From Mobula hypostoma (lineage: Eukaryota): DNA of 64,000 nt. The notes under the pieces are model-generated. The model worked only from the letters and a program-made list of their open reading frames with translations. It was not told where the DNA came from and ran no database searches. How positions within the stretch are numbered: the first letter of the stretch is position 1; every line of letters starts with the position of its first letter. Below are positions 1 to 52,433 of the stretch, one piece after another. A program made the translations under genes and the position numbers. The DNA is taken from NCBI RefSeq assembly GCF_963921235.1, contig NC_086107.1, positions 95,792,001 to 95,856,000 of the forward strand, read 5' to 3'.

Positions 1-1113
1 GATCTGTTGGAATTCTTTGAGGAAATAAGATACAGGATAGACAAAGGAGAGTCAGTGAAAGTTGTCATTTGGATTTTCAGAAGACTTTTGACAAGGTGTT
101 GCATTCGAGCCCATGGTATTACAGGAAAGGTACTAGTATAGATAGAAGATTGACTGACTGACTGACAAGAGGCAAAGAGTGGGATAAAGGGGGCCTTTTC
201 TGGTTGGCTGGCAATGAGTAGTGATGTGCCGCAGGGGTCAGGGTTGGGACAATTTCTTTTCATGTTCTACTGTATGTCATTAATTTGGATGAAGGAATTG
301 ACTGCTTTGTGACCAAGTTTGTAAATGATACTAAGATGGGTGGAGGGGCAGGTGGTGTTGAGGAAGCAGGGTGTCTGTAGAAGGACTTGAACACATTGGG
401 GGAATGGGCAATGAGTGATTCTAGGGAATAATACCTACCCCATCAATTCTCCGTTAATCACCAGTTCACCTTCCCATCCCTCCCATAACAGAAATGTACC
501 ACCACTCCTACCTTCTCACTGTTGTTACAGAACTCAACACACCCATCAACACAGCTTGGCTATAATCATGTCCTCTGGGTACAGTCGCAGCCAGTTGTCC
601 CTCCTCCTGTACAGCCCCTTCCCACCCAGGGCAGTTACAATCAAGCCTCCTGGGACACTGTCACTGTCAGGTCCCTTCAGCAGCTACTGAGAATTGAACA
701 GTGCTGGACGAGAGGAAAACAAAGCCTTTCAGATCCCAGTCTCGTACTGACCTGCAGGTTTAGCGTCTCGCCACTATGATTGAGGTTTCTGAAGCAGTAA
801 ACAAGGTCGATAAGGGTTGGTTAGTTGTGGTGTTTGTAGACTTCAGTCAGTACTTTGATAAGGTCCTACGTGGTAGACTGCTATCTGGTTGCATGGGATC
901 CAGGCAGAGCTGTCTAAGTAGATCCAGAATTGGCCTGATTATAACAAGCAGAGGATGATGAAGGGAGGATGTTACTTTCAGACTGGAGGGCCGTGACTAG
1001 TGGGGTGCCTCTGTTCAGAGAACATTGAATATAGAACAGTACAACACAGGAACAGGCCCTTGGCTCACAATGTTGTACCAAACTAATTAAACTAGTAATT
1101 GAAAGCCTAACTA

Positions 1114-1414
1114 GGGCCGGCTGGTGGCGCAACGACATCAGCGCCAGACCCGGGAGCGGAGGTTCCAGGGTTCGAAACTAGCTGGGTCCACTCCCGTGTA
1201 CACTTTCCATCCATGCCGGGTTGAGTGTCAAGATCGCAACTCGACCTCATAAAATAAAGGGAAAATACTGCGAAAATGTCTGTGTAAGGAGTGGCGCACC
1301 ACGCAGTCTCTCTCTCTCTCTCACTCTGCGCCTTGTAAAAGACATGAAAAAGACATCATCACGGACGCATGTACACGCACAAACTCGCACGCACGCAGGC
1401 ACACAACAAAAAAA
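1114..1414 (+). mobile_element. tRNA-derived SINE, family A
   Basis: A-box TGGCGCAACG, B-box GGTTCGAAAC, poly-A tail, TSD AAAGCCTAACTA (1102-1113 / 1415-1426). Confidence 0.85.
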
Positions 1415-1612
1415 AAAGCCTAACTAACCAATCCCTTTTGCCTATAGAAGACCTTATCTCTCCATCTCTCTACATTTGTATACCTATCTTAGAGCCTCTT
1501 AAACGCCTCTATCACACGTGCCTCCACCACTACCCCTGGCAGTGCATTCCAGACACCCACCGTTTTGTGTAAAAGAACTTGCCCTGCACATTTAATTGAA
1601 CTTACTTTAAAT

Positions 1613-1652
1613 CAGGAATTCCTAACTTGGGGTCCATGGCATAAAAGCCCTG
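1613..1652. mobile_element. 40-bp deletion derivative of the same hAT MITE
   Basis: CAGG...CCTG ends, shared GGTCCATGGCATAAAA core, perfect TSD CTTTAAAT. Confidence 0.7.
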
Positions 1653-2504
1653 CTTTAAATGCATGCCCTCAGGTATTAAATTTTTCAACCTTGGGTAAAA
1701 GATGCTGTATGTCTACTCTATCTATTTTCAAACTCAACACCTTGATTAATAAAGGCAAGCATGTCACATGCCTTATCATCCGTTCAACCTGTGCATTCAC
1801 TTTCAGGGAATTATAAATCCCTAAATCCCTCTGTACACCAACACTGCTAAGGGAGCTGCCATTACTGCATACTGTCTTTTATTCACATTTGCTTTCCCAA
1901 AGTGCAACACCGCATGTTTTGTCGTGTTGACTGCATGACTTTAACTTCGAGCCCAATAAAATCATCTTCACTTCATTGAACACACCATCTCGCAACTCAT
2001 ACTCTGTAACCATCTGATGCTGGGTGTGTCTGCCACTTCAATACCATCCCAACATCTATGGGAAGAAACATGAACTAATGAGAAGATGCCGAGAATCAAT
2101 ATTTGGGCCTGGCCTGGCCTCTGGTTAATGAGAGTGAATCACATCTCATCTTCCACGTCTACATCGCTCATTAAAGGACAGCTTTTAATTTGCACAGAAT
2201 ACACACAATCTGAACCATATTTGAGGAAACAGAATATCATCTTTTAATGTTCAAGAGTCGTGGCAACCATTCTTTCATGTCCACTTCAAAGATTTAAATG
2301 AAATGGTTGCTGAGTTTTCTTCTACAACAACAGGGACTTGACACACAGAAGGTTTATTAAAACCAAGTTCAGGGCAAGTGATTTGAAACCAAGGGAATTT
2401 AGTGACTTGCCCCGAGTTTCTGTTCCCACAGCATCCTCATTATCTCCCAGCTGTCTTTTGAAATGGATTTTTATAAACTTTAAAGAATGGCATTGTTAGA
2501 ATTT

Positions 2505-2580
2505 TATTTCCCTAATGAGTTTATTGATGTCACTATCTCTGTCCCTGAGTCTTATATAAACCCAGTAGCACAGGGTCGAG
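2505..2580 (+). promoter_or_regulatory. PTH2/TIP39 core promoter
   Basis: TATATAAA at 2553-2560; CRE-like TGATGTCA at 2525-2532; lies just upstream of a short exon ending in a consensus donor. Confidence 0.65.
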
Positions 2581-2581
2581 C

Positions 2582-2681
2582 ACACACTGACCAACACTGA
2601 GACCAGCTCACGCCGACTGACATCCATCCACTACCACTAAGACACTTGTCTGATATCAAAGACTGAAACACAGTATTTCTG
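2582..2681 (+). other. PTH2: PTH2 non-coding exon 1 (5' UTR); start approximate
   Basis: Start inferred ~30 nt downstream of the start of the TATA box; no ATG; ends CTG|GTGAGT (GT at 2682). Confidence 0.65.
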
Positions 2682-3874
2682 GTGAGTACAATGTTTTCTT
2701 TGCGAAAGTGAAGTCAGAACTGAAATGAATATGAAAGTGAATAGATACCTCACTGCGATGCTTTTCAGAGATCTGCATTAATCCTTTGATCAGCAGGGAA
2801 ATCCTGCATCCATTGGTGCTTGTAACCCAATCCTCCATCACCATAGTCTTCCTATCAGTGGCTCCCACCCACCAGAACCCAGTGGTCAGCTGCACCCCAA
2901 AGGGTTCAATGATTGACATATTGGACTGCAACCAGAATTTCACCATTGATCCGGAGATGTGAGTTGGAACCCTAGAAATTCCCATGCAAGTTATATTGTT
3001 AATCTGGAATTTTTATCTTATAAAATACTTCTTTCAGTAATGGTGGATGTTATTTAGTTCATGATGTCCCTTGGAGAAGGAATGCTGCTGTCCTCACTGG
3101 GATGGGCTCATACGTGATCCCAGACCGACCTGTAAGATTTACTCTCAACAGACCTGTTGTTTAGGGGTATCTAGGGATGAATCCATTCTCCTCAGTTTCA
3201 TCCTCCCAGTGACATTCTCCTCTCCCAACCCTCCCTGCTGCTTACCGAGCTGCCTTGAGCTCCTTCCCAGTTCTGACAAAGAGTCTTTAATGTGAAAAGT
3301 TTCTCTCCTCACAGATGCTGCCTGATCTGCTGAGAAATTCCAGGATTTTCTGCTGTTATTTCAGATTTCCAGTAGCAGATGGAGTCTGTGGAGATGACAT
3401 GGTCCATTAGACTGGTACCACTAACAATGTATGGTAATCACTCCGGGAGTCCCACTGACAACCTGCGACTTTGGACTGCCGGACAAGATAGACTAAGTGC
3501 TTACAACCCAGTTCTTGAGCGGTGTGTGGGTGGTTGAAAGAGGTGTACGTGTGTCTATGTCAGTGTGTGTATCCAACGTCATTTGCGGTGTATTACCATT
3601 ATATCAGCGTGCTTTGCATTGTGCATATAAAGATATAAGATGTTACATGCAGGTTGGGGTGTATATATCAAAATTCAAAGTAAAATCAGGGTATAGACAC
3701 TTCACCACATGCAACCCAGAGGTTCTTTATCCTGTGGGCATACTCAGCAAATCTATAGAATAATAATTGTAAACAGGATCAATGAAAGAGCAAGAGCAGA
3801 GAAGACAATGAACTGTTGAAATGCAACTGTAAATAAATAGCAATCAATAACAAGAGCATGAAATAACAATCACA

Positions 3875-4440
3875 GACAAGAAAAAATCTGGCAGATGCTG
3901 GAAATCCGAGCAACACACAAACTGCTGGAGGAACTCAGCGGGCCAGGCAGCATCTCTGGGGAAAGAAAAGTACAGTCGACATTTCGAGCCGCGACCCTTC
4001 AGCAGGACTGGAGAAAAAAGGTTGAGGAGTAGGTTTGAAAGATGAGGGAAGGGGAGAGAGAAATGCCAGGTGATAGGTGAAACTTGGAGCGAGAGGGATG
4101 AAGCAAAGAGCTGGGAAGTTGTTTGTGAAAGAGACAGAAGGCCATGGAAGAAAGGGAAAAGGGGGGGCCGTGGGGGTGAGGAGCACCGGAGGAAGGTGAT
4201 GGGCGGGCAAGGAGATAACATGAGAGAGGGACAAGGGGATAGGAAATGGTGAAGGGGTGGGGGGAGGGGAGGCATTACTGAAAGTTTGAGAAATCGATGT
4301 CCACGCCATCAGGTTGGAGACTACCCAAACGAATATTAGGTGTTGCTCCTCCAACCTATGTATGGCCTTATCCCGACGGGGGAGGAGGCAATGGATGGGC
4401 ATATTGGAATGGGAATGGAAGTGGAATTAAAATGGGTAGC
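3875..4440 (-). mobile_element. Older Penelope-like 3' fragment
   Basis: RLEEQHLIF remnant plus a 3' tail with a degenerate hammerhead (3974-4009). Confidence 0.8.
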
Positions 4441-5042
4441 CAATAACAAGACAAGTGAAATCAATGGTTGTGGGAACATCTCAATAGATGAGTGCAATTA
4501 TCCTCTTGTTCAAGAGCCTGATGGTTGAGGGGTAGTGACTGTTCTTGAACCTGGTGGTGCGAGTCCTGAGGCCCTTGTACCTTCTACCTGATGGCATCAG
4601 TGAGAAAAGAGCACGGCCTGAGTGGTGAGGATCTTTGATGATAGATTTTGCTTTCCTACGATCGTGTTTCATGTAGATGTACTCAGTGGTTGGAAGGGAT
4701 TTACCCATGATGTACTGGACTGAATCGACTAGCTTCTGTGGGATTTTGTAGAACTACATGCTCTATTGTATGATTAGGTGTGATTTGGTGCAGGTGATTT
4801 AAGTATGTGTGTGTTGCTACTGGGTGTGAGATTCTGCATACGTGTGTCTGGGTGTGAGTCACTATCGGGTGTGTGTCTGGGTGTGAGTTGATTGCCAGGT
4901 ACATCCTTGAGGAAGAACCAGTCCCGTTGGCAGAATGTAACTCCACTGGTTTCACACAAGCTGCAGCCCCAACCTGCCCTGTGTTTTACTGTGGGCCTGA
5001 AACGAACATTCAGGCCGTTGTTTCTTGTTTCTCTCACAGGTC

Positions 5043-5155
5043 ATGGAGCCTTGGTCCTATGCTCGAGTGCTGCTGATGGGACTGGTACTGGGACTGAGCT
5101 GTATTCCACCCCCGTGTGCTGAAGCTGTTCCTGCCTCGGCTCGACACTCAGAGAG
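5043..5155 (+). CDS. PTH2: PTH2/TIP39 precursor, first coding exon (signal peptide)
   Basis: Acceptor TTGTTTCTCTCACAG| at 5039, ATG at 5043, MEPWSYARVLLMGLVLGLSCIPPPCAEAVPASARHSE(R) with hydrophobic core and AxA cleavage motif. Donor AG|GTAAA is phase 2 and matches the next exon. Not in the ORF track. Confidence 0.85.
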
Positions 5156-6377
5156 GTAAAATCCCCTCAGCAACAGTTGTTGTTGCCCACGTGCCGTCTG
5201 TATTAAACGTGGAGAAGGTCATGGGAGCTCGGGAATTCAGGGAGAGAATAGTGATAGCTTGGATCATGTCCACGAGAAGAGAGAGGAGGTGCAGGTGGTC
5301 TTAACTCACAAAAAGGTGGTTGAATCCCCAGGGGCCTAACCAAGTGCATTATGGGAAACCAGGGGAGAAATTCCAGGAGCCCAGGTAGAGATAGTTATAT
5401 CGTCAGCAATAGGAGAGGTGCCAGAAGACTGGAAGATGGCAAACATTGTGTCTCTATTTAAGAAGAGAGGCAAGGACAAGCCAAGGAACTCCAGACTGGT
5501 GAGCTCATCAGTGGTGTCAAAGTTACTGGAAGTGATTCTGAGGGGCAGGATCTAGGCTGCATTTGAATGACACATGGAGTTTAACTCCGACAAGTGAGAA
5601 GTGCTGCATTTTGGATTGTTAAACCAGTGCAGGACTTCAACAGAAACGGGGGAGCATTGTCAGCAGAGCTATAGTGTTACAGTTACGTAGTTCCCTGAAA
5701 GTGGTGACAGAGGGAGGGAGGGTGAAGAAGCTCTTTGGTCAGGGGATTGAGTACAGGGGTTGGAATGTCATGTTACAGCTGTATGAGACACTATTTCTGG
5801 CAACTCATTTAAATTACACACCAGCCTGTGTGTGATGAAACTGCCTCTGACATCCCTATTAAATATATCAGCCTTGATCTTAAACCTATGCTCTCCAGTT
5901 TATAGTAATCCTTCCCTGAGAAAAAGATAGTATACTTTTCCCCCGTCCAAACCCATTATGATCTTGGGTACCTTTATCATGTCACCCTCAACCCCTTACA
6001 TTCCAGGGAATAAAGTCTGAACCTACAGCCTAGTTGAAAATCAGTGTGAGTGAGGGCTTTTCTCCTTGTAATGTCAGAGGATGAGAGGAGACGTGATGGA
6101 GGTGTACAAGATAAGAGACATTGATAGAGTGGACAGCCAGAGACTTTTTCCCAGCAATGGCTAATAACAGGGGATACTTTTATGTTGATTGGAGGAAATT
6201 AAGGGGGGGGTGTCAGAGGTGGGTTTTTTTCCACTCAAGAGTGGCGGGTGTGTGAAACGCCCGGCCAGGGGTGGTGGTAGAGGCAGATACATTAGGGACA
6301 TTTAAGAGACTCTTGGATAGACACATGGATGATAGAAAAATGGAGGACTATGTGAAAGGGAAGGGTTAGAAAGATCT

Positions 6378-6653
6378 TTTTTTTGCACATGTGTGTGCGA
6401 TGTTGGTGGGACGATGTCTTTTTCCTGCCTTTACAAGGCGCGGAGAGAGCGAGAGAGAGACTATGTGGCGTGCCACCCCTCACACAGCCATTTTGCAGTA
6501 TTTTTCCCTTTATTTTACGAGGTCGAGTTGCAATCTTGACACTCAACCCGGCACGGATTGAAAGCGTACTCAGGAATGGACCCGGCCGGGTTCGAACCCG
6601 GGAACCTCCGTTCCGGAGTCCGGCGCTGATGTCATTGCGCCACCAGCTGGCCC
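6378..6653 (-). mobile_element. tRNA-derived SINE, family A
   Basis: Inverted homolog of 1114-1414; degenerate TSD AGGGTT.GA.AGATCT. Confidence 0.85.
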
Positions 6654-7814
6654 AGGGTTGGACAGATCTCAAAGTAGGTTAAAAGATTGGCATATCACTG
6701 TGGGTCAAAGAGCCAATGTTCTATGCATCCTCTCCTTGTAATTCACACCCCCAACTCCAGCCAAAATCTTTTTGTACTGTTGCTAGTTTAACAACATTTT
6801 TCCTATAACAGGATGACTATAACTGTATATAATGCTCCTCACCAATAACTTAAATAATTGTAACAAAGCATCTGAACTCCTATACTCAGTGTCTAGACTG
6901 ATGAAGATTAGTACACCAAATACTATCTTCAGCACCCTATCTATCTGTGACGCGCTTTCAACGAGCCTTGCACTTGTAATCCTAGGCCCCTCTTTCATAC
7001 CACTCCCTAGGACCGAAGGATTCACTGGACAAGTCCTCTCTGGTTTGATCTCCCAAAATACAATACCTCACATTGCTCTGGATGGAAATCCATTTGCCAA
7101 GCCTCGGCCCTCACACCGAGCTCATCAATATCCCATGTAGTTTTTCATAACCTTCTACCCTATCTATAAACCCACCTATTTTTATATCATCTACAAACTT
7201 TATACATTCACATCCAAGTCATTCATATAAATTATAATCAACAGAGGTCCCAGCACCGACTCCTGTGACAGGCTTCCAGTCTGTGAAACAATCCTGAACC
7301 ATCACCCTCTGCATCCTCCCACTGGGCCAATCATAAACCTGTTCTGCTATCGTCCCCAATTCCCATGTGATCTAATCTTGCAGAATAGCCTGTCATGGAG
7401 GACCTTGTCAAAGGTCTTGCTATAGTCCATATGGACAATCTGCAGCCTACCCTGATCTAGCCTCTTAGTTACCTCCTCAAAGAACTCCAAGAGATTTGTT
7501 AGACACCAAATCCCATACACAGAGACACACTGACCGGAATCAGATCCTGTCTCTCCTGATGTTTTAGATCCTGTCTCTCAGAATTCCCACAGCAAATGGA
7601 GGAGTTCCTGTGGCCATCTGGTCCATCATTCCACCTAATCCTGGCTGATCTCCATACCAGTTCCCCATTTTCCTCATTTCTCTGATCTTTCTAAATTGTG
7701 ACTCCCTGAACACAATGCCCTGCAGAGAGCACTCTACAAAGGCTGTTTCTATCACTGGAAAACACTTGATGTGAAAGGTTTGCAGGAGCTGAGATTTGCT
7801 TTGTCCATGTCTAG

Positions 7815-8250
7815 GTCTGGGACAATTACGAAGCGGCCGGGTATGATGGGAGACGAGCAGTGGGGGAGCCTTCTGCAGATCATCATGGGCTGTCATGCCT
7901 CTGGCCCAGAGTGTGGGAGCAATGTGAAGGAAATGGCAACCCTTGCTGGTGCCAGAGGTCTCCCAGGAAAAGACTCTGGGACCTGGCAGATTTCGGCATT
8001 AAATTCAAGAGAAGGCCTCGATGGGACCTCGCTGGAGCGCAGCACTTCTGACAGTGGAGCAGGGGGGACTGGGGCTCTGCTGGACAAGAGCTGGGGCTCT
8101 GACTGGCTGGAGCCCAGCACCAAAACAGAAGCAAAGCGAAGCACTGTGGTGGCGGATGATGTGCTTTTCCGAGAAAAGAGCAAGTTATTGGCTGCTCTGG
8201 AGAGGCAAAAATGGCTGAAGTCAATGATAAGCCGCCTTGTGCTTACCTAA
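7815..8250 (+). CDS. PTH2: PTH2/TIP39 precursor, last exon (propeptide + mature peptide 8140-8247)
   Basis: Acceptor TTGCTTTGTCCATGTCTAG|G. Ends ...EAKR|STVVADDVLFREKSKLLAALERQKWLKSMISRLVLT*, matching the TIP39 signature ADDxxFRE..LL.A.ER..WL after a dibasic site. Confidence 0.93.
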
Positions 8251-8305
8251 TTGTGCAGTCTCCAGAAAGTCTCAATGTCTCCACGTGGATTCACTCCTGA
8301 ACTCT

Positions 8306-8311
8306 AATAAA
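8306..8311 (+). terminator. PTH2 polyadenylation signal
   Basis: AATAAA about 55 nt after the stop codon. Confidence 0.6.
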
Positions 8312-11300
8312 TTTCTCTGCAACGACATTGTCTCCTGTATGCTTTAGAATTGCAAACAGCAGCTTATGATTGACAGCTGATTTGGGGTGGATTCCAACCC
8401 ACAGCCCTCTGTGGGTACTGGGGTGCAGGTAGAGTAGAGGGGCCCAACAGAGGAGGGTGTGGGCAGTGGGTGTGTCCAAGGAGTCAGCAGCTGGGGAATC
8501 ACATTGGGAATGGATGAGTGTGACAGAGGAATGGGAAGTCAAGGAGGGGCTGGATTAGGGGTAAGGAGGGAGGTAACAATGAGGGAGGGGAGGTAAGAGT
8601 GGGGGCAAGAAAGTGAGGCCATTGGATGTCGGTCAGAGAAGGGGAAAGGTGGAAGGACAGAGAGAGCAGGGTGATGTAGCTGAGCGAGGGTCGGGATTAC
8701 ACAGGAAGACAGGTAGGGCTGGAAAGATAATTTACAGGACTGTGTAGAGTCTGGAAAACTCTTTGAACAGTGAAGGAGATTTACAGAGGCACCTCATTCT
8801 GAAATGTGCAAGAAGAATACAGATAAATTATTTCCAGTGGCAGAGGACAAGTTACAGAGGCCGGGAAAGGAAGTTTTCAAGCAGAGAGTTGTGAAATGGA
8901 ACGCACTTCCCAAACGGGCAGTGAAAGGAGATTCACTGGGGAGGGGCTGGGGTAAATGGTGAAGGTAGAGGGAGGGAGGGGTGGAGGGAAAGAGTGACAT
9001 CAATGGAATCATCCTTCCTCAGGACATCCCAAAGACGTGTAGCTTGATGGGTTAAATGGCCTCTGTAACCTGCCCCGTGGGTGTTGAGGAAGGGTAGAAT
9101 CCGGGGACAGTCAATGAGAGTGGGAAGAGAAGAAAGGAGGATCAGTTTAGGTCGGTGCACAATGGTCAGCACAGAATGAATGGGGCAAAAGCCCTGTTTC
9201 TGTCCTGTGTGAAAATCTATTAAAGAATAAGGGGCTTGGCCTGGCAGACAGTGGAGTGTCTGGGTTCAAAGGTTAATGTGAACCCCATGACCTTGAAACA
9301 GACCTGTACTTGATGCGGGAGCAGAGTCCAACACTCATCGACCTATGTAAGTGAACACCATACGGGCCACTAGACTGAGGGGAGACACTTCGTACTGGTG
9401 CATTGGGCAGGGGTCAGGGGTTTTCTGTAACTGGGTGCTGTCACTGTGGGAAGGGTTGCACCGGACACTGGTGCTTCTGGGAATAGCATCTGAAGGAATT
9501 CTGAGAAGAGGGCATCCAGCACTGGTTTCACACATTGGGAAGAGGCTTGCAGAATTATTCACAGAGAATGTGATTCATCGAAAAAGTTACCGTCTGTACA
9601 GAGGTGAACATTAAATCATCCACACCCAGAAATCATCACAGCATTTACTGTACACAGTTAAAGAAAGATACTCATTGAGTTGGTGATAAACCAGGAAGGC
9701 TGCAGAATGAAAGAGAGAGATCAGGTTTGGTGCAGAATGGGGATTGCCAGGACTGAACGATGGGTTCACATAAGCACTGGCTTTTTGAACTTGCTTCTTC
9801 ATCTACCAATCAGGTCCCAGAAGGATCGCTCATCAGATGGGACACTTCCATCCTGTCACAAGCTGTCAAACACTGCCCATTAAATCAACTTTCACGGAAT
9901 AAACAACGGCCTTGGCCAGATGGCGTGAAAGGCACTGCTGCTGCAGCTTCTGCCCTTTATAGAGAGGCCTGTGTGCTAAGCCCACGACAATGTCCGGACC
10001 CCAGTGATGGCCTGATCACACTGGCTGGATGTGTACCCCTGGTTTCCTGCTGAGGTCTGACTGAAAAGACCAAACTTTACAGATTTTACAATGGCTTACG
10101 AATACAACAGCTCTCCAGATTGAGCACAGGAATGGTGAAAGGACACAAGCTATGAGATTATAAACATAGATACAAACTCATATGAACAGACCTCAGTTAC
10201 TTGGCCCCTCAAACTGGATCCGCTACTGAATAAGTTCACACCTTGTGTGACTGTAACTTGGAGCCCTGGTGACTCTCCGAGGAAAAAAAACACGAAGAGA
10301 GTCATAGAGCCAGTGAGCCATGCCAAGCATTGAGGTCCCACTTACACTATCCCTACATATATTAATAGAAGCCCTTTGGCCCACATTGTTGAGTCAAATC
10401 TATAACCTGCTCTAAGATCAATCTAACCCTTCTCTCTCACACATCACCCTCCACTTTTCTATCATCCATGTGCTGATCAAAGAGTTTCTTACATGCCCCC
10501 AATGTATCTACTTCTACCACCACCCGTGACAGGGCAATCTATGCATCCACCATAACTTGTTAAAAAAAAAATTACCCCTGATGTCCCCCCTATATTTTCT
10601 TTCAATCACATTAAAATTATGCCCCTTCCTATTAGCCGTTTGCACTCTGGGAAAACGCCTCTGATTATCCACTCAGTCTATGCCTCTTTATCATCTTGTA
10701 CACCTCTATCTCAACCTCCTTTTCTCCAGAAAGCAAATCCCTACCTTACTCGACCTCTCCTCACAAGACACGCTCTCTAGTCCAGGCAGCATCCTGGTAA
10801 ATTTCCTCTGCAGCCCCACTACAGCCTCGGCATCCTCCCTAGAATGAGAACTAACCTCAATATTCCACGTGCAGTTGACCAGTTGCAACATTACCTCATG
10901 CTCTTGAACTCAGTCCCTCAACTAATATCAAACTATCAACATCTACGGCAACATTGAGGGATCTATGGACACTGACCCCAAGATCTGTCTGTTCCTCCAC
11001 ACTGCTAAGAATCCTGCCATTAACCCTGTATTCTGCCTTCATTCTGTTTGATGCCTTAATTTCCTGACTGGACAACTCCTTCATTTTAAAAAGAATGAAA
11101 TATTTTTGAGGATTTGGAGGGTTTGAGGAAATAACGAGGCTTGAACTGAATAAATTAATGGTCAAAACTGAATGAGACAAAACAATTCAGTGAGAAGGGA
11201 AAGTGCAAGAAGAACACAGAAGAGGTGAGAGAGCTTGTACTGAATTCTCATTGGATTTCACCTGGCTGTGACATACTCGTGTGGGGATGAAAATACCTCT

Positions 11301-22078: not shown

Positions 22079-23955
22079 CTAAAGAAAAAATAAAGCACTG
22101 GATTATAACAATTAATACTAGAAACCACTGGTTGCATGTAGCAAGCTTCTATCAGAAAGCAATTTCAAGCTGTTGGATTTTATTGCCACTGGTGCAAGGC
22201 CATTACTAATTGTGCCACTGGACATTCCTCACTCAGCTACTCCAATCTGTGAAGCTGTTTCCAGTCCGGGAGTAGCAATATTCATACACATACCACCTTC
22301 TGTTTGAGAGGGGAAAACTTGCATTTGGGCTTTAAATCTTCACCTATCAAAAAGCAACTATCTAGATTGCTTCTTTCCAGCCTATGCCACCTTCCACTGG
22401 GCAGATTTAAAAGCTTAAAAATGCACCATCAGGCTCAAGGACAGCTTTTACCCCATTATACGACTCCCGAACAGACCTCTTGTACAATTTTAAAACTTTC
22501 CCTCAAACTTCCTTGTCATTGACCCTTGCACTTTGCCTGCCTGTGCTGCATTTAACACTATATTCAGCATTGATATTGCTTTACTCTTGCTCTGGTTTGC
22601 AATTCTGCTTGGATGCTTACAAAAGTTTTTCCACTCTCTCAGTACAACATTCCAATTCCCTTTCTGAACTTCTGAGTCCAGCAGATATTCTTGTCTAAAC
22701 TGGCTTTGCACTTAAAACTTTACCACAGAACCCTTTGAAGAGTTGACCTTGCAGCTTTCCTTCCTGGCATTGAGTAGTGATGTTGTTCTTTCTTTGGGCA
22801 CTGTCCCTCAGATGTACAGCTATTTGTCACATCAAGTCAATGTTGGCTTTCTTTGTCCATCTATACTATTCCCATCATATCTTCCTGCCGCTGTAATAGT
22901 GATGGTTCGTCTCATCCTTAGTTACCACCCCATCACCCTCCACATCCAACACATCATCTCCACAGCTTCTGCCATCTTCAAAAGGATCCTACCATCAAAC
23001 GTGTCTTTACCTTACCCCTCCCCACTGCTTTCCCCAGGGGTTGCTCCTTCCGTGATTCCCTTGTCTATTTGTCTCTTCCCACTAATCTCCTTCCAGGCAC
23101 TTATCTCTGCAAACAAAAGAAAATCTGCAGATGCTGGAATTTCAAGCAACACACATAAAAATTGCCGGGGAATGCAGCAGGCCAGGCAGCATCTATAGGA
23201 AGAAGTACAGTCAACGTTTTGGGCCGAGACCCTTTGTCAGGACTAACCGAAAAAAGAGATAGTAAGAGATTTGAAGGTGGCAATGGCAAACAGTTTCTGT
23301 AGAGAAAATTGCCAAAAATAATCATGGTCAAGACCATGATTGCCCATGTCATATGACATGGCACATAATGATGATGAATTTTCTTTGGTGGGGAGGAGAG
23401 GAAACAGAAGAGAGGAGCAGGATGCCTTTCATCTTTTATTTTAAAAGGTCTCCCCTACCCCCTTTGCTCCAAGGAAAAGTCTCTCTCATAACTAATCCAA
23501 GATACCATCCTGGCGAGTTTTCTTTACACTCTCCCCTGTTCAGCATACCCACCTGACATTCTCTTTCTTCTCTCCTCCTCCCTCCCCCCCCCTTTACTCT
23601 AAGATACTTGACCACTCTTTCCTTGCAACCAAACATACTGGGCCCCTAATAAAAATGATTATGTAATGGGGCCTCGTTTGTACACATCTCACTGGAACAT
23701 CATTGAACACATTGTTACTTTAGCAACATAATGGTTCCAGCCACCCGCAATAATTCAGGCAAAGGTATCTGCTCGCTTTCTGCTTCCGCTCACCCATGGT
23801 GCTGGCACTTGCTGTCATCCAGCTTATGGTACAACAGTTTAGTAGTTCCCCTCCCACTGGACCAAAGGTGGCTGAGGGGTTACCTTATAGCGCTGTATAA
23901 ACTTATGAGGGGTACAGATAGGCTGTACCATTCACCCTTTCCCCCGGAGTAAGGT

Positions 23956-24200
23956 GAGAGGGAGGGAGGGAGGGAGGGAGAGAGGGAGGGAGGGAGGGAG
24001 GGAGAGAGGGAGGGAGGGAGGGAGGGAGGGAGGGAGGGAGGGAGAGGGGGAGAGGGAGGGAGAGGGAGGGAGGGAGAGAGGGAGAGAGGGAGAGAGGGAG
24101 AGAGGGAGAGAGGGAGAGAGGGAGAGAGGGAGAGAGGGAGAGAGGGAGAGAGGGAGAGAGGGAGAGAGGGAGAGAGGGAGAGAGGGAGAGAGGGAGAGAT
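23956..24200. repeat. (GGGA)n/(GAGAGGGA)n polypurine microsatellite
   Basis: Directly visible ~245-nt pure G/A tract. Confidence 0.97.
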
Positions 24201-24599
24201 AGATATTTAAAGGGCAGCTGTGGGCGTATGGAGCCAGCGGCCAGAGGAAGTGGCGGGGCGGGTATCTGAGGCAGTTGGACGTGTGCATGGATTAAAAGGG
24301 ATTTGGGCCAAACACAGGCAAATGGCTCCAGTCCATGCCTACCTGAGGGAGTGGGTCAGGTAGGTCCTGTTTCCGTGCTATATAACCCCGACCATGACTG
24401 AAATGGTTAAAACATCAGCGATTCTCTCCTACGCTATGATTCCCTCTCATTGGTCCTGTCCAATTTCTCACCTCTTTTGACAGCATCTTTCCACATGTAC
24501 TCGCCCAACTCTTTCCACACACATTCATTGCTCCTAAAAATTTGCCCAACACCCCCAAAAAATTGCATATTAATGTTAAAAGAACATTTCTTTCCCATC

Positions 24600-28800: not shown

Positions 28801-30207
28801 GAGGGTCTCTTTGTTTCCAACTCTTTGATGTTACTCTTTATTTCTGTCTTAACTGTCCACACAGTAATATCCCTGAGTCCAAATGATGAGTTTCGACCTG
28901 AAATATCATCTGTCTATTTCCCTCCATAGATGCTGCTTGACTTACAGTTACGCCGGCATTTGTTTGTTTCTCCAGGTTTCCTGCATCTGCAGAGGCTTTC
29001 ATGTCTCCCTTGTACCCACTCATGCCATAAGTCCATGCTTCTTGCATTTAAGTAAATGTAGTTCAGCCCATCAGACCTTCCTTGTTCCTGTCCTGCCTGA
29101 TCTGCCTACGGATCTTGCTCACTTTAACTTCTATATTGCTCTACGTTCCCATCGGCATCACTGCTACTTTGGATCCCACGTCTTGTCAGGTTAAACCTTC
29201 CCAGGTACAATTAGGATATTTTGCCAGGATATTAGTCCCCTTATAATTCAGGTACAAAATGCCCCTCTCCTTCTATGGGTCACCTCTACTCCAGAAGAGA
29301 TCCCGATGGTCCAAAACCATGAATACACCCCTCTTACACCAGACCTTCCACCGCAAAAAAAAAAGTAGTGGATGCAGCCCAGTCCATCACAGTAAAGCCC
29401 TCCCCACCATTGAGCACATCTACACAGAGCGTTGTCAGAGGAAAGCAGCATCCATCATCAGGGAGCCACACCACCTAGATCATGCTCTCTTCTCATTGCT
29501 GCCATCAGGAACAGGAACCTCAGGACTCACACCAGCAGGTTCAGCAACAGTTATTACCCCTCAACCATCAGGCTCTTGAACCAAAGAGGGTAACTTCACT
29601 TGCCCCATTATTGAAATGTTCCCACAACATATGGGCTCACTTTCAAGGACTCTTCGTCTCACGTTTTTGATGTTTATTGCTTATTTATTATTATGAATTC
29701 TTCTTTCTGTATTTGCACAGGTTGTCATCTTTTGCACACCGGTTGAATGCCAGTTGGTCCAGTCTTTCATTTATTCTATTATGGATTTATTAAGTATGCT
29801 TGCAAGAACATGGATTTCAGGGTTCTATGTGGTTATATATATGTAGTTTGATAATAAATTTACTTGAACTTTGAACATACATTTACTCCATTGTTGCTCT
29901 TACTAGCACAGAGCACAGGTGCAGAATCCAGAGTTTGCAATTACTGAGGTCCTACTTTATAACCTTCTATTTAACTCCCTATGGTCATTCTGGAGGACCC
30001 TCCCACTATTTGAAACCCTTCTGGCAAGTTCCGGTTTCTGAGTGTATTATCCCACATAGGCAGGTGACCTCATACTGAGGAATGCAACAGCTCAGAACAG
30101 AGCATGCTACACTTCTTGAAGACAAATTCACCAATATTGTATGTGTCCTGGAGTCTGTCTTTGGGTCCTCTGTGGATATTTTGTAATGTCTCACTTTCTG
30201 TTTCCAG

Positions 30208-30389
30208 TTGGAGGTATCTACACCGTGATTCAAACAAAGGCAAAGCTCACGACAGACGAATGGCAAGAGAATTATGTGCTGATGGGTCCATATTTTGAGC
30301 ATAACGTCAGAACACAAGTGGAGCTGGTGGAGCCACAGAACCCTGCTATCAAACACACCATTAACTCAATGAATTCCAAGGGCTGTAAG
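30208..30389 (+). CDS. GYS1: GYS1 exon 2 (182 nt)
   Basis: (V)[64 protein letters not shown] borders; phase consistent. Confidence 0.97.
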
Positions 30390-31834
30390 GTATCGGATAC
30401 TTGGGAGGGAGTAAGACCTGAATTCGCATTGGCTTTCAACAGGGAGATTCATGACTTCCACATTAATGTTCACTCAACACCAATAATGAACTAAAGCTTC
30501 TGTCATTTTGAGGCATTTATGAGAAACTTTCCTTTTTCGGAGGGAGTTAATGTCTCTTTAACAACAGTAAGGTGGATGAGTCCCCAGAGCCAGATAGGAT
30601 ACACCCCAGGTTATTGAGAGATCAAGAAATGAGATTTCTGGAGCCTTGATGAAGTTCCTTGAGCTCTGTCTGCCACAGCTGAGATTCTGGAAGACTGACG
30701 AGTAGCTAATATTTGTTCCATTATTCAAGAAAGGAAATAGGGATAATCCTGTGAACTATGAGTCTCACATCAGTGGTGGGGAAGCTACTGGAGAGAATTT
30801 TCAGAGATAGAATTTGTGCACCATGAGTAATCGGGGCAGAGAGCATGTGTTTGATGGTTTCTTACTAATTCGATGAATTTTTCGAGGGGGTGATGAAGGT
30901 GATTGATGAAGGCAGAGTTGTGGATATTGTCTACACTTTATAAATCCCTCATAGGATGCTAATCCAGAAGGTTAAGAAGATCATGGTGATTAGTCTGTAT
31001 GGATTCAGAACTGGCTTCCCGTAGAAGATAGGTATCTGTGGGACTATTCTGGCTGCTGATCCATGCCAAGTGAATCTTTGCAGTTTGTGATATATATTAT
31101 TTATTATTTAGGGATACAGCACGGTAACAACCCAATGAGCCCAAATTGCCCAACTACACCCAGTGACCAATTAACCAACTAACTCGTATATCTTTGAAAT
31201 GTGGGAGGAAACCAGAGCATCTGGAGGATACCCACATGGACCCGGGACAATGGCCCAGATACAACACTCAGTTTAAACTGTAGGCGGGTAGATTAGTTGG
31301 GAAATGATCCAAAGCTTGATGGGTGTTGTGGATAGTGTAGAAGATTGCCAAAGGAAACAATAGGATATAGATCAGTTTCAGATATACGTGGAGAAATGGC
31401 AGATGGAGCTTAATCCAGTCTGTTAGCAGCCTTTTTTTTATTATTACTGTCTTCCTGGTGTCTCCATTATTTGGTCTCCTGTCATTACCATAGGCATTGT
31501 TATAACAATCATTGTGATATTTCCTGTGTTTTCTTCATGCATGCTTTCTGATAACTCTCTCTGAAACGTTTTTGAGTATGCTGATCCCCATCACAAATCT
31601 TTCCTTATTCTTTCTATTCTTCATGAATTCATCTGCCTGATCCAAGCTCTCCATCAAATCCTGTGAAGTTTGGTCTTGTTTAATTGTCTTTTTCACTTTC
31701 CACAAAGTTTATATGTTCTCCCTGTAGCCACGTGGGTTTCCTCGCACATCCCATAGGCTAAAAGGTCAGTAGGTAATTGGTCACATGTGCAATTAGGCAA
31801 CGTGGGTTCATAGGGCCTGTTACTGTGCTGTATA

Positions 31835-34520: not shown

Positions 34521-35253
34521 GTCTATAAAAATGCCATGAGAAGTTTGTACATTGAGGCATGAATGCGGGTTTTTATACAACTACTTGAAAAGTTATCGAC
34601 CCTAGAGTGTAACTCAAATAATTTGTTCAAATACATATTTCAAAATCATACTGGACATTAAAGTTATAATTACAGGCTGCACTATTTTTAAAAGATGGAG
34701 TTCCAGAGGGCAGTGACCTCGGCCCAACTATCTGTACCTAGCTCACCACTGCCCTTTCTTTCAACCCTGGAAGATTTTATCTTCTGCATTAATTACATGC
34801 GTAGGTTGGCATTTTGTAAATATCTTACAATCTAGAATAATAGTATCTCAAAGTAGTGTCCTGTTTCTGCCTGGTTTACTGCCTGTGTGAATCGTTCTTG
34901 GTGCTGAGGTGCTCAGCCATCGTGAGGACATGTCTGGACACCGAGGGTCCTATGGGTCTCAAGATCCTCAGGATTCGATGCCCTGTGAAGTGGTATCGTG
35001 GGATCTGTAATGTGCACTTGAGGGGGGTAGACATTCCATCTAGCAGGCTGTGCCTCTGATAGTGCAGTGCTCCCTCGTGCTGTGGTAGACTGTCAGACTG
35101 TGCAGTGCTGAACTTGGGCTGGAGTTTATAACCTTCTCACCCTGAGCAGATTAAGTGATTGGGAAAGCCTGTTTCTCCCAAGGATACAGAGTCACTCCAC
35201 AGTAACCACGCTCAGTAATTGGTCCTGTTTTATTGTTTTGTTTCTACATGCAG

Positions 35254-35445
35254 GTGTACTTTGGGAAGTGGCTGATTGAGGGGAACCCATCTGTTGTCCT
35301 GTTCGATATTGGTGTTTCAGCTTGGAACTTGGACCGCTGGAAAGCAGAGCTGTGGGATTGCTGCTCCATCGGGGTCCCCTGGTACGACCGAGAAGCCAAT
35401 GATGCTGTTCTCTTTGGTTTCCTCATCACTTGGTTCCTGGGAGAG
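35254..35445 (+). CDS. GYS1: GYS1 exon 3 (192 nt)
   Basis: [82 protein letters not shown] is GYS1-type rather than GYS2-type. Confidence 0.97.
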
Positions 35446-36169
35446 GTCAGTGAAATCCATGTGGAGTTATCCCGGGTACTGGACTCTACGTCATCCGTGT
35501 AAAGTTCAAAACAAATTCATTTTCAAAGTACCATATACTACCCTGGGATTCATTTTCTTGCACGCATTCAAAATGAGTAGAAAGAACCATAAAAGAATCA
35601 ATGAAAAATTGCACACGGCGAAGATCGACAAATAACCAGTGTGCAAAAAAACAACAAACTGTGCAAATACGAAAAAGAAAAGAAATAAAAATAATAAGAA
35701 AAACAAACAAGAAATAAATATCAAGAACATGAGTAGTAGAGTCCTTAAAACTGAGTCCATAGATTGTGGAATCCGTCCAGTGTTGGGTGAAGTTAAAGCC
35801 TCTGGGTCAAGAGCCTCACACACAAAATGCTGGAGGAACTCAGCAGGCTGGCAGCATCTAGGAAAAGAGTACAGTCAACGTCCTGGGCCAAAACACCGAC
35901 TGTACTCTTTCCCGTAGATGCTGCTTGGCCTGCTGAGTTCCTCCAGCATTTTGTGTGTGTCTCTCGGATTTCCAGCATCTGCAGATTTTTTCTTGTTTGT
36001 GGGTCAAGACCCTAATGACTGAGGGGTAATAACTGTTCCTAAGCCTGGTGGCATGCGACATGAGGCTCCTGCACCTCCTTCCTGATGACGGCAATGAGAA
36101 GAGAGCATGGCCTGGATGGTGGGGGTCCTCGATGATGGATGCTGCTTTCCTGCATCAGCGCTCCTTGTA

Positions 36170-39870: not shown

Positions 39871-40068
39871 ACACAGATGTACAGCTTAAATTCGTATCAT
39901 GGTTGGCACAGACATCATGGCCCTATGCTCTGGAGCATAAGTTGTCAGCTTTCCCCTGGTAACCACTGCTCCTGAGATGCACTGGCTGATGTACACCAGC
40001 TGGTGACTTTGAATAATTCTGTAACGGTGTTTTCTGTCCATGTCTAACCCGATGCTTTTGCTTTTCAG

Positions 40069-40257
40069 TTTGTTTCCCAGTGCAAGGAGAATTGTCCATT
40101 TATCATCACTCACTTCCACGAGTGGCAGTCCGGTATTGGTCTGATCATGTGCAGATTCCGCAAGATTCCTGTGGCCACAATCTTTACAACACACGCCACG
40201 TTGCTGGGACGGTACCTGTGTGCTGGGAATGCCGATTTCTACAACAACCTTCCAAAC
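40069..40257 (+). CDS. GYS1: GYS1 exon 4 (189 nt)
   Basis: [63 protein letters not shown]; an alternative in-frame AG ends at 40080. Confidence 0.95.
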
Positions 40258-40471
40258 GTGCGTAAACATCCTTCCATTTCTGTTATGGCACGGTTCGGAA
40301 CTCTGTCCAGTATCCTGAATCGTGCAATACTCCCTCAGTTTCACTCAGAATCAGGCTTAATATCACTGATGTAGATTGTGAAATTTGTTGTTTTGTGGCT
40401 GCAGTACATTGCAATACATGAAAAGACTATAAATTACAATAAGAAATATATATAAAGAATTAATGTAGATA

Positions 40472-45321: not shown

Positions 45322-47546
45322 AACTGAAGGAAGAGTTAGTAAGAGATTTGAAAGTGGGAGAGGGAGGGTGAGATCCAAAATGATAGGAGAAGACAGGAGG
45401 GGGAGGGATGGAGCCAAGAGCTGGACAGGTGATTGGCAAAGGGGATATGAGAGGATCATGGGACAGGAGGCCCAGGGAGAAAGACAAGCGGCGGGGGGGG
45501 GGGGAACCAAGAGGATGGGCAAGGGGTATAGTCAGAGGGACAGAGGGAGAAAAAGGAGAGTGAGAGAAAGAATGTGTGTATAAAAATAAATAATGGATGG
45601 GGTACGAGGGGGAGGTGGGGCATTAGCAGAAGTTAGAGAAATCAATGTTCATGCCATCAGGTTGGAGGCTACCCAGACGGAATATAAGGTGTTGTTCCTC
45701 CAACCTGAGTGTGGCTTCATCTTTACAGTAGAGGAGGCCATGGATAGACATGTCAGAATGGGAATGGGATGTGGAATTAAAATGTGTGGCCACTGGGAGA
45801 TCCTGCTTTCTCTGGTGGACAGAGCGTAGATGTTCAGCAAAGCGGTGTCCCAGTCTGCGTTGGGTCTCACTAATATATAGAAGGCCACATCGGGAGCACC
45901 GGATGCAGTATATCACCCCAGCCGACTCACAGGTGAAGTGTCGCCTCACCTGGAAGGACTGTCTGGGGCCCTGAATGGTGGTAAGGGAGGAAGTGTAAGG
46001 GCATGTGTAGCACTTGTTCCACTTACAAGGATAAGTGCCAGGAGGGAGATCAGTGGGGAGGGATGGGGGGGACGAATGGACAAGGGAGTCGCGTAGGGAG
46101 CAATCCCTGCGGAAAGCAGAGGGGGTGGGAGGGAAAGATGTGCTTAGTTGTGGGATCCCGTTGGGATCAGCATCCTTCGCTACATCGACGACTGCATTGG
46201 CGCTGCTTTCTGCACGCATGCTGAGCTCGTTGACTTTATTAACTTTGCCTCCAACTTTCACCCTGCCCTCAGGTTTACCTGGTCCATTTCCGACACCACC
46301 CTCCCCTTTCTAGATCTTTCTGTCTCTATCTCTGGAGACAGCTTATCTACTGATGTCTACTATAAGCCTACTGACTCTCACAGCTATCTGGGCTATTCGT
46401 CTTCTCACCCTGTCTCTTGCAAAAACGCCATCCCCTTCTCGCAATTCCTCCGTCTCCGCCGCATCTGCTCTCAGGATGAGGCTTTTCATTCCAGGACGAG
46501 GGAGATGTCTTCCTTTTTTAAAGAAAGGGGCTTCCCTTCCTCCACCATCAACTCTGCTCTTAAACGCATATCTTCCATTTCACGCACATCTGCTCTCACT
46601 CCATCCTCCCGCCACCTCACTAGGAATAGGGTTCCCCTGGTCCTCACCTACCACCCCACCAGCCTCCGGGTCCAACATATTATTCTCCGTAACTTCCGCC
46701 ACCTTCAACGGGATCCCACCACTAAGCACATCTTTCCCTCCCCCACCCCTGCTTTCCTCAGGGATTGCGCCCTATGCATCTCCCTTGTCCATTCGTCCCC
46801 CCCCATCCCTCCCCACTGATCTCCCTCCTGGCACTTATCCGTGTAAGTGGAACAAGTGCTACACATGCCCTTACACTTCCTCCCTTACCACCATTCAGGG
46901 CCCCAAACAGTCCTTCCAGGTGAGGCAACACTTCACCTGTGAGTCGACTGGGGTGATATACTGCGTCCGGTGCTCCCGAAGTGGCCTTTTATATATTGGC
47001 GAGACCCAACGCAGACTGGGAGACCGCTTTGCTGAACATCTACGCTCTGTCCGCCAGAGAAAGCAGGATCTCCCAGTGGCCACACATTTTAATTCCACAT
47101 CCCATTCCCATTCTGACATGTCTATCCACGGCCTCCTCTACTGTAAAGATGAAGCCACACTCAGGTTGGAGGAACAACACCTTATATTCCATCTGGGTAG
47201 CCTCCAACCTGATGGCATGAACATTGACTTCTCTAACTTCTGCTAATGCCCCACCTCCCCCTCGTACCCCATCCGTTATTTATTTTTATGCACACATTCT
47301 TTCTCTCACTCTCTTTTTTCTCCCTCTGTCCCTCTGACTATACCCCTTGCCCATCCTCTTGGTTCCCCCCCCCCCGCCGCTTGTCTTTCTCCCTGGGCCT
47401 CCTGTCCCATGATCCTCTCATATCCCCTTTGCCAATCACCTGTCCAGCTCTTGGTTCCATCCCTCCCCCTCCTGTCTTCTCCTATCATTTTGGATCTTAC
47501 CCTCCCCCTCCTACTTTCAAATCTCTTACTAACTCTTCCTTCAGTT

Positions 47547-48047: not shown

Positions 48048-48371
48048 TAGGAGAAATAAATTTTCAACCTCTGCCTGTCTTGCTCGGGTTTTCAGCAGTT
48101 CCTGTTTCTTTTCTGGAAATGCTTTGATGTTCGGCTGCACAGTAAGAGGTGTCTGTGCAATGGTTTTGGATGGTTACCAACTGTTAGATTTAGGGGTGCC
48201 AATGAAAGGCAGGCGTTTGTTTCTTTTGCACATTCTTGAGTCTCTCCTGAAGCAAACAGCTTCACAGATGCTGTCTGACCTGCTGTGTGCTTCCAGTGTC
48301 TTGCATTTTTAATCTCAGATTTCCAGCATTTGGAGTTCCTGCTGTTCACGCTATGACAGTGTCTATTTCAG

Positions 48372-48516
48372 TTTGATGTGGACCGTGAGGCAGGTGAGAG
48401 GCAGATTTACCATCGATATTGCATGGAGCGTGCAGCTGTCCATTGTACTCACGTCTTCACCACAGTGTCAGGGATCACAGCCATGGAAGCAGAACACCTG
48501 CTCAAGTGCAAACCTC
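48372..48516 (+). CDS. GYS1: GYS1 exon 5 (145 nt)
   Basis: [54 protein letters not shown]| and |GTGAGT. Confidence 0.97.
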
Positions 48517-48609
48517 GTGAGTAACCTCTGCCACCCCGTGCGAAATGTACCCCTCAGCTCCAGCTTCGAGACTATGGTCTCAAAGCCTTTACAGAAACTT
48601 GATTAAGAG

Positions 48610-51330: not shown

Positions 51331-52315
51331 AAGACCATAAAATATAGGAGCAGAAGTAGGCCATTTGGCCCATCGAGTCTGTTCAATCATGGGCTGATCT
51401 AATTCTTCTGGTCATCCCAACTCCCCTGCCTTCTCCCCATACCCTTTGATGCCCTGACTAATCAAGAACCCATTTTTCTCTGCCTTAAAAACACCCAATG
51501 ACTTGGCCTCCACAGCCGCTCATGGCAACAAGTTCCACAGATTTACCACCCTCTGACTAAAATAATTTCTCCGCATCTCTGTTCTAAATAGATGTCCTTC
51601 AATCCTGAAGTCGTGCTCTCTTGTTCTAGACTCCCTACCATGGAAAATAACTTAGCCATGTCTAATCTGTTTTGGCCTTTTAACGTTTGGAATGTTTCTA
51701 TGAGATCTCCCCTCATTCTCCTGAACTCCAAGAGCTGCCAGACGTTCCTCATACAGTAACCCTTTCATTCCTGGAATCATTCTCGTGAATCTTCTCTGAA
51801 CCCTCTCCAACATCAGTATATACTTTCTAAAATAAGGAGCCCAAAACAAGTTAAGCATTTATTTAAGGTGAGAGATGAGTGGGACAAGTATTTTCACACA
51901 GTGGGTCCCTGGAATGCACTTCCTAGGTGGTGGTGGGGAGATGCAATGGTCGGGTTTAGAAGCCCTGGCCAAGAGTCCCTTTAATTGGTTCCATTTAATT
52001 AGACTGAGGAGACGGGTGGTGCTAGATTGGAGTGTTGCTGACTGGCAAATCAATGGGTTGAGGTCACTCTTAGACTGGGGTTGTCTGGGACTGGTTGGGA
52101 TGCAGAAATATCAGGATAGGTACTGTCTCCATACTGGGCAGGTTTTAGCCTGGGATCGTGTTCGGCTGTTGGTCTCAGAAGTGGTGGGGAGGGGTGGGGG
52201 TGAGGGTCCCTCTCAGGGTTGTTGATATTAGCGTCCATTATGCTTGGAATTGATTAAAACTTCCTGTTCCAACACAGACTCTCTGAGTTAATAACTTTCT
52301 GCTTTCTTTCCACAG

Positions 52316-52433
52316 ATGTGGTCACTCCAAATGGATTGAATTTGAAGAGATTCGCTGTAATGCATGAGTTCCAGAATTTGCATTCTATAAGCAAGATGCG
52401 GATTCAGGAGTTTATACGAGGCCATTTCTATGG
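52316..52433 (+). CDS. GYS1: GYS1 exon 6 (118 nt)
   Basis: (H)[38 protein letters not shown](G); CACAG| and |GTAAG. Confidence 0.97.

Follow-up and report, generated by a model that had tools for sequence, protein, structure and literature searches.

A probable single-copy PTH2 orthologue encoding a short TIP39-type peptide in the batoid Mobula hypostoma

We analysed a 64,000-nucleotide stretch of the genome of Mobula hypostoma (RefSeq assembly GCF_963921235.1, contig NC_086107.1, positions 95,792,001 to 95,856,000 of the forward strand), referred to below as the window, and found in it what is very probably the single orthologous PTH2 gene of this batoid cartilaginous fish, encoding a TIP39 precursor whose mature peptide, at about 36 residues, is normal for the class. 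The product of the third exon scored 61.1 bits (E 9.5e-17) against the Pfam TIP39 model PF14980, and the predicted 36-residue peptide alone scored 54.5 bits, the cut-off being 27. As determined with HMMER, the best match in the PDB was human TIP39 (7F16 chain P, E 1.4e-7), and the sequence match to the TIP39 family is far beyond chance. In the alignment to 7F16 chain P the residues Asp6, Asp7, Phe10, Trp25 and Leu26 of human TIP39 are kept, and Leu9 of the window peptide is placed by HMMER opposite Leu7 of PTH in 6FJ3; an earlier note on this DNA had described both Leu9 and the first four of the kept residues correctly. The equivalence of TIP39 residue 9 (Ala in human) and PTH Leu7 is also drawn in the text of Wang et al. 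(2021; PMC8364112), where TIP39 Trp25 corresponds to PTH Trp23. PTH(1–34) belongs to the same superfamily, and the window peptide resembles it marginally, with an E of 0.56 to the PTH chain of 6FJ3 (6FJ3_B) compared with 1.4e-7 to TIP39. Furthermore, the peptide has no Met-His-Asp, the motif that is present in the PTH, PTHrP and PTH-L peptides and missing from TIP39 according to the text of On et al. (2015; PMC4354418). An identity as PTH, PTHrP or PTH-L was thus ruled out.

Genome searches were performed on the 3.48-Gb assembly of 200 contigs, of which contig 45 contains the window. When the exon-3 product was searched for in six frames, this locus only was returned (one match among 16 scored candidates). 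When the Pfam TIP39 profile was used, the locus scored 62.9 bits and was the sole one of the nine listed matches above the cut-off. The eight further profile matches were weak (E 0.6–9.5), and none of the seven that were translated (L003–L009) was PTH-like: six belong to one retrotransposon-pol-like repeat family and the remaining one (L007) is unrelated, so that they were rejected as paralogues. A neighbour-joining tree, a method weaker than maximum likelihood on short sequences, was calculated from 17 precursors (157 columns, 200 bootstraps) and matches the species tree, with bootstrap values of 90 for the cartilaginous fishes and 98 for the sharks. The window gene is located inside the batoids (70 for the group of the two annotated batoids and the window gene), where it pairs with that of Narcine (91). 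Since the gene is present in a single copy, takes its place in the tree as the species do, and has a muscle-type glycogen synthase gene as its neighbour, it is a PTH2 orthologue, and a reading as a paralogue is rejected.

Gene structure, transcript evidence and constraint

Scripted splicing and translation of 5043–5155 (113 nucleotides) joined to 7815–8250 (436 nucleotides) gave a 549-nucleotide open frame of 182 codons and a stop, with precursor, splice sites and frame as the earlier note had given them (Table 1). Exon 2 is preceded by an acceptor AG at 5038–5039 and its ATG (5043–5045) stands in a good context. The donor GT at 5156–5157 reads AGAG/GTAAAA, the acceptor AG at 7813–7814 follows a pyrimidine-rich stretch, and the intron between them is of phase 2, i.e. 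it interrupts codon 38 after the second base. Residues 8–19 of the precursor form the hydrophobic core of a predicted signal peptide, and the exon-2 product could be aligned to the N-terminal regions of the precursors annotated in nine cartilaginous fishes. There are two Lys-Arg pairs, at residues 44–45 and 144–145, the second of which precedes the 36-residue peptide and, directly after it, the TAA stop codon at 8248–8250, an arrangement that had likewise been recognized before. The aligned dibasic site is Lys-Arg in eight of the nine cartilaginous-fish precursors and Trp-Arg in Leucoraja.

The candidate exon 1, which extends up to 2681, contains no ATG. Position 2553, at which the earlier note let the gene begin, proved to be the first base of a TATATAA box and not the transcript start, and the true start of this putative exon probably lies some 25–30 nucleotides past the box. 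According to the text of On et al. (PMC4354418), the TIP39 gene has three exons throughout the range from teleosts to mammals, and the last of them encodes the peptide.

Repeats of very high copy number were observed in intron 2 at 6070–6654 and 7357–7590, with summed contig depths of 10^4–10^5 in three DNA runs of related organisms. At 6070–6420 the contig depth exceeded 10^5 in three DNA runs of relatives, and the repeat at 6154–6270 showed many internal deletion variants among the relatives' contigs. No tRNA-like gene was found in positions 1–9000 using ARAGORN.

Contigs of four other organisms were mapped onto positions 4900–8400 at 80% likeness. One of the runs (X16) is, by our guess, a probable RNA run from a related organism, and the other three (X5, X9 and X10) are DNA-type runs of relatives. 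A 622-nucleotide contig of X16 (depth 45.3) covers about 5040–5137 and the unbroken stretch 7813–8322, skipping the intron, and joins 5137 to 7813 with AGAG in between. Since exon 2 ends in AGAGAG and the intron in AG, this join can be read as the 5155/7815 junction combined with a 12-nucleotide in-frame deletion in exon 2. The depth of X16 is about 0–5 in the non-repeat parts of the intron compared with 36–45 on the exons, and its coverage of exon 2, as judged by bin depth, begins at about 5040, the predicted acceptor. The contig ends at 8322, 11 nucleotides past the AATAAA signal. By arithmetic it appears to have some 30 more letters before exon 2, outside the mapped stretch, as would be expected of an upstream non-coding exon. 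X5, X9 and X10 cover both exons and the intron. Taken together, the features of X16 appear to be those of a spliced transcript, and the coding-exon junction proposed in the earlier note appears to be used in a related organism.

The pattern of differences between the window and the four relatives was counted for the best-supported differences listed. Among these, the mature peptide contains two (8145 and 8208), both synonymous, and the stop codon at 8248–8250 contains none. The exon-3 propeptide has three synonymous and three replacement differences, plus a 12-nucleotide deletion in X16, and exon 2 has two synonymous and four replacement differences. This pattern would fit selection on the peptide.

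Peptide length and sequence across cartilaginous fishes

We compared the window peptide with those of nine annotated precursors (Callorhinchus milii, Heptranchias perlo, Heterodontus francisci, Scyliorhinus canicula, Mustelus asterias, Pristiophorus japonicus, Chiloscyllium punctatum, Leucoraja erinacea and Narcine bancroftii). The peptides were anchored on Ala-Asp-Asp, and that of Narcine was counted from its own Lys-Arg site. The peptide has 39 residues in the four bony vertebrates compared and 36–38 residues in all nine cartilaginous fishes: 38 in five sharks, where it ends in Lys-Lys, 38 in Callorhinchus, where it ends in Arg-Lys, 37 in Leucoraja, and 36 in Heptranchias and Narcine, as in the window. 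If carboxypeptidases trim the terminal basic residues, as they would in general prohormone processing, the length becomes 36 in eight of the nine (all but Leucoraja, which stays at 37) and that of the window peptide remains 36. Val8 is found in all nine peptides, and in each of them other residues stand in place of the Tyr29 and the Lys-Leu-Leu-Val-Val tail that bony vertebrates have.

As length, Val8 and changed tail are common to all nine, the short form belongs to the class as a whole, so that little of its novelty is left, and a length of 39 residues does not define the family. The earlier note had proposed a lineage-specific "TIP36" and had held that the same form in already annotated sharks and rays would speak against it. 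Indeed, all nine annotated precursors have Val8, a short C-terminus and, following Trp-Leu, a rewritten tail. What stands of the proposal is Leu9, which is Ala in eight of the annotated forms and Val in Narcine, together with some residues of the tail. No paper giving the length of a cartilaginous-fish TIP39 was found, the search having covered text passages of Pinheiro et al. (2012) and On et al. (2015). The text of the former reports that elephant shark and lamprey have a putative TIP39 gene (PMC3483286), which is restated in that of the latter (PMC4354418).

The window peptide is identical to those of the cartilaginous fishes at 22–25 of 36 positions, to those of the teleost and the frog at 22, and to that of the mammal at 18. 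Its tail is of the batoid type (Trp-Leu-Lys-Ser ... Ser-Arg-Leu). By tree position, the same gene is represented in Narcine bancroftii (XP_069765790.1, P0005) and Leucoraja erinacea (XP_055487551.1, P0023), with which the window gene has in common Trp-Leu-Lys after Gln/Lys24, a Ser/Thr-Arg-Leu tail and Ala-Ala at positions 18–19. However, the peptides of these two batoids are only 24–25 of 36 identical to the window peptide, position 9 is Leu in the window, Val in Narcine and Ala in Leucoraja, and the Narcine peptide begins one residue later. Their precursors, with 110–115 residues, are without the middle of the propeptide, whereas the 182-residue window precursor keeps it. The sharks and the chimaera (P0061–P0064, P0004, P0009 and P0027), with precursors of 160–233 residues, resemble the window gene in the leader, in the Trp-x-Ser-Asp-Trp-Leu-Glu-Pro stretch before Lys-Arg, in Val8 and in the trimmed length of 36, and differ from it in the peptide (22–25 of 36 identical) and in a propeptide motif discussed below.

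Compared with human TIP39, the window precursor follows the same logic, and with the putative exon 1 its gene would have the three-exon layout given in the text of On et al. (PMC4354418). Besides the kept residues named above, Leu16-17, Ala18-19, Leu20, Glu21 and Arg22 are found in both peptides. The window peptide is three residues shorter, agrees with the human one at 18 of 36 residues and has Val-Leu in place of Ala8-Ala9. Human Arg23, which bonds Gln130 of the receptor according to the text of Wang et al. (PMC8364112), is Gln in the window and equally in the compared peptides of frog, teleost and sharks.

Receptors, batoid divergence and alternative readings

By analogy with the family, the leader would be cleaved off, probably after Ala28, when the precursor enters the secretory pathway, and a prohormone convertase would cut after Lys144-Arg145 to release a C-terminal peptide of 36 residues that runs up to the stop codon and has no amidation signal. 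The peptide would fold as a helix, the C-terminal half of which (Trp25, Leu26 and the hydrophobic tail) would dock on the extracellular domain of a PTH-type class B1 receptor, while the N-terminal part (Asp6, Asp7, Leu9 and Phe10) would enter the transmembrane pocket and activate Gs and cyclic AMP production, as solved for human TIP39 and PTH2R. Phe10 and Leu26 are residues that we take to be receptor contacts. The three residues missing relative to bony vertebrates would fall in the tail that is unresolved in the human complex. Since the contact positions described below for the human complex all exist in the 36-residue peptide, it would be a normal agonist of such a receptor.

As described in the text of Wang et al. 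(2021; PMC8364112), the solved complex (7F16) contains residues 1–34 of TIP39 only, and the extracellular domain of PTH2R clasps residues 22–39. The same text assigns roles in receptor contact to Asp6, which bonds Tyr152 and Arg190, to Asp7, and to Trp25, which contacts Ile34 and Ile38 of the extracellular domain. Ala5 and Ala9 contact Leu399, like Ser3 and Leu7 of PTH, and TIP39 without residues 1–6 becomes an antagonist. Leu9 of the window peptide is thus the residue that PTH uses at the Leu399-type contact.

A genome search with the 7tm_2 domain gave 104 exon matches, and the 20 exons of the type encoding transmembrane segment 3 (TM3) were clustered. One triplet of TM3 exons, on contigs C1, C18 and C91, best matches PTH receptors in the PDB, and the scores of these exons against PTH1R and PTH2R lie within 1 bit of each other in all three genes. 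The TM2 exons scored 58.7 bits against PTH1R and 48.4 against PTH2R on C1 (difference 10.3), 59.9 and 50.7 on C91 (difference 9.2), and 60.6 and 58.6 on C18 (difference 2.0), where 26 kb separate the TM2 and TM3 exons. Because the C18 gene is the only one that is not clearly PTH1R-like, it is a candidate, though unproven, PTH2R. PTH1R, PTH2R and PTH3R are all reported from the elephant shark in the text of Pinheiro et al. (PMC3483286).

In the same search, large clusters of 7tm_2 matches were observed on contig C81 (21.9–23.1 Mb and 30.1–31.2 Mb) and contig C2 (29.6–30.1 Mb and 53.0–53.2 Mb), the matches on C2 including five intronless full-length frames of 468–536 residues. Such clustering points to local expansion of receptors of the adhesion or secretin type.

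Several points weigh against reading the locus as a PTH2 gene with a normally acting peptide. Signal cleavage, convertase cleavage and receptor activation are steps that we infer, and none of the three receptor genes is firmly assignable to PTH2R. A processed DNA copy in the X16 organism would give an identical joined contig, and the RNA status of that run is a guess. No RNA run of the species itself with the exon was found, the three probable RNA runs X22–X24 sharing next to none of its words, which is uninformative on expression either way. A further 444 differences from the relatives lie outside the constraint counts. Moreover, the batoid peptides are the most diverged ones, with 20 (Leucoraja), 21 (Narcine) and 24 (window) of 36 positions identical to the chimaera peptide of Callorhinchus versus 26–29 in the sharks, which among themselves are near-invariant (28–36 of 36). 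A second conserved block of the propeptide, Pro-Ser-x-Ser/Thr-Leu-x-Asp-Trp-x-Ile/Leu-x-Met, is common to sharks, teleost, frog and coelacanth (compared using P0004, P0061–P0064, P0017, P0022 and P0033) and could serve as a sorting signal or yield a second peptide; the window has it in degraded form (7860–7960, without Asp-Trp), and the two annotated batoids lack it. This block is also absent from the mammal and lies outside the Pfam TIP39 model.

It is conceivable, if unlikely, that TIP39 has evolved faster in rays and skates than in sharks, with receptor-facing changes (Ala9 to Leu or Val and a rewritten tail for binding the extracellular domain) and with loss of the propeptide motif, possibly with a shifted receptor, and that Leu9 could give a ligand capable of acting on PTH1R or PTH3R in place of a pure PTH2R ligand. 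The divergence of the batoid peptides and the degradation of the motif, which the Narcine and Leucoraja precursors have lost by deletion, would also be in keeping with a gene under relaxed constraint that is being lost, or is changing its receptor, in batoids, so that the peptide may no longer be a PTH2R agonist. The lack of a receptor exon clearly assignable to PTH2R is in line with this idea, and the loss of PTH2R and TIP39 in the chicken, reported in the text of Pinheiro et al. (PMC3483286), would be a parallel in birds. However, we consider relaxed constraint improbable: the frame, splice sites, dibasic site and poly(A) signal are intact, the receptor contacts Asp6, Asp7 and Trp25 and the presumed contacts Phe10 and Leu26 are kept, the listed peptide differences from the four relatives are all synonymous, a spliced contig exists at a depth of 45 in a relative, and there is a third PTH-receptor-type gene with near-equal scores against PTH1R and PTH2R.

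The earlier note had offered, as its other option, a distinct PTH2 paralogue. In that case a canonical TIP39 gene for a 39-residue peptide would exist at another place in the genome. The modest identity of the peptide to other cartilaginous-fish TIP39s (22–25 of 36) would agree with this, but no second locus in 3.48 Gb exceeds the Pfam cut-off, the weak matches are transposon-like, the gene groups with its batoid orthologues as the species tree predicts, and no 39-residue form occurs in the nine annotated cartilaginous fishes, so that this very improbable option is close to refuted. The possibility raised in the earlier note that a wrongly assembled stop codon accounts for the short C-terminus has nothing specific in its favour and can hardly be credited at all, as 52 of 52 sampled words of 7815–8330 were found in four runs of the possible source sample (which are not independent of the assembly), the contigs of four other organisms cover the stop site with no change there among the differences listed, and the peptide has 36 residues in Heptranchias and Narcine, too, and one more in Leucoraja. 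We therefore retain the reading of the locus as the single PTH2 orthologue with a peptide of class-normal length.

The glycogen synthase neighbour and the significance of the locus

Downstream of PTH2, at a distance of 22 kb, there is a muscle-type glycogen synthase gene, its exon-bearing frames being spread over at least 32 kb (Table 1). The exon at 35248–35478 is 98% identical to "glycogen synthase, muscle-like" of Mobula hypostoma and 89% identical to that of Hemitrygon akajei, and since nearly all of its named matches are muscle-type, with one liver-type, the neighbour is GYS1-like. By these matches the window belongs in or close to the myliobatiform rays. In Scyliorhinus canicula, the annotated TIP39 gene and a muscle-like glycogen synthase gene are both found on a contig of 27,685,257 bases. 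Human PTH2 and GYS1 are presumably linked at 19q13.33, an assumption for which no supporting paper was found. Nor did a literature search return a paper treating PTH2 and GYS1 together, and GYS1 is not mentioned in the main text of Pinheiro et al. (2012; PMC3483286), the Additional file 3 of which compares TIP39 gene environments.

The introns of the glycogen synthase gene are full of transposon remnants. Inverted copies of a GIY-YIG nuclease-like element were observed at 45590–47280 (both strands) and 58690–59650, where the frame 46314–47243 (+) matches PF01541 (E 2.7e-5) and similar translations are found on the other strand at 45626–46309 and 58725–59641. These look like copies of a Penelope-type retroelement within the glycogen synthase introns. 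The frame 56560–56952 (+) matches Pfam PF09004 (ALKBH8_N, E 5.8e-9) and, lying among transposon-like frames, is probably part of a repeat and not a host gene. A long purine-rich simple repeat at 23880–24360 can be read as repeated Gly-Arg-Glu on one strand and as repeated Ser-Leu-Pro on its complement. Besides TIP39, no Pfam domain was detected in the frames of at least 55 residues that were scanned, namely 110 plus-strand frames in 1–30075 and the first 110 of 266 minus-strand frames (3–30365).

Table 1. Features of the PTH2 locus and its neighbour in the window, and PTH-receptor-type genes elsewhere in the assembly
Feature	Position	Strand	Basis
TATATAA box, candidate core promoter element	2553–2559	+	pattern match, sequence
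Putative non-coding exon 1, donor GT 2682–2683	2553–2681	+	sequence only
Exon 2: 3-nucleotide leader, ATG 5043, signal peptide, start of propeptide (37 codons + 2 nucleotides)	5040–5155	+	
Intron 2: 2,659 nucleotides, GT..AG, filled with high-copy repeats	5156–7814	+	
Exon 3, coding part: propeptide, Lys-Arg site, mature peptide, TAA	7815–8250	+	
Lys144-Arg145 codons, predicted prohormone-convertase site	8134–8139	+	
Mature 36-residue TIP39-type peptide (P0003)	8140–8247	+	
3' untranslated region, AATAAA 8306–8311, transcript end near 8322	8251–8322	+	signal and X16 contig end
Muscle-type glycogen synthase gene	30120–61897, runs past window end	+	Pfam PF05693, profile positions rising in order from 10 to 360
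Glycogen synthase exon-bearing frames (7)	30120–30491, 35206–35499, 40048–40371, 48357–48521, 52258–52434, 56157–56339, 61763–61897	+	
PTH-receptor-type genes (L040, L044, L048, L060–L062)	C1:143597592–143599106, C18:141110316–141136817, C91:10569346–10570228		

No near-identical protein to the window precursor was found in the large protein collections searched, the top identity among the returned matches being at most 72%. The same collections returned the muscle-type glycogen synthases of three rays (Mobula hypostoma, Hemitrygon akajei and Pristis pectinata) but no TIP39 from any of them, so the gene may be missed in ray annotations, and the description of it as hidden in the earlier note seems right. 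The locus thus seems to be a routine single-copy TIP39 gene that was apparently missed by annotation, and its practical value is an annotation fix for PTH2 of rays. For the evolution of the PTH family, it adds a cartilaginous-fish case of PTH2 adjoining a muscle-type glycogen synthase gene. The acceleration in batoids and Leu9 may leave a small question on receptor pairing. A peptide named for its 39 residues is predicted to have 36–38 in all nine annotated cartilaginous fishes, and the missing part falls in the tail that is unresolved in the human receptor complex.

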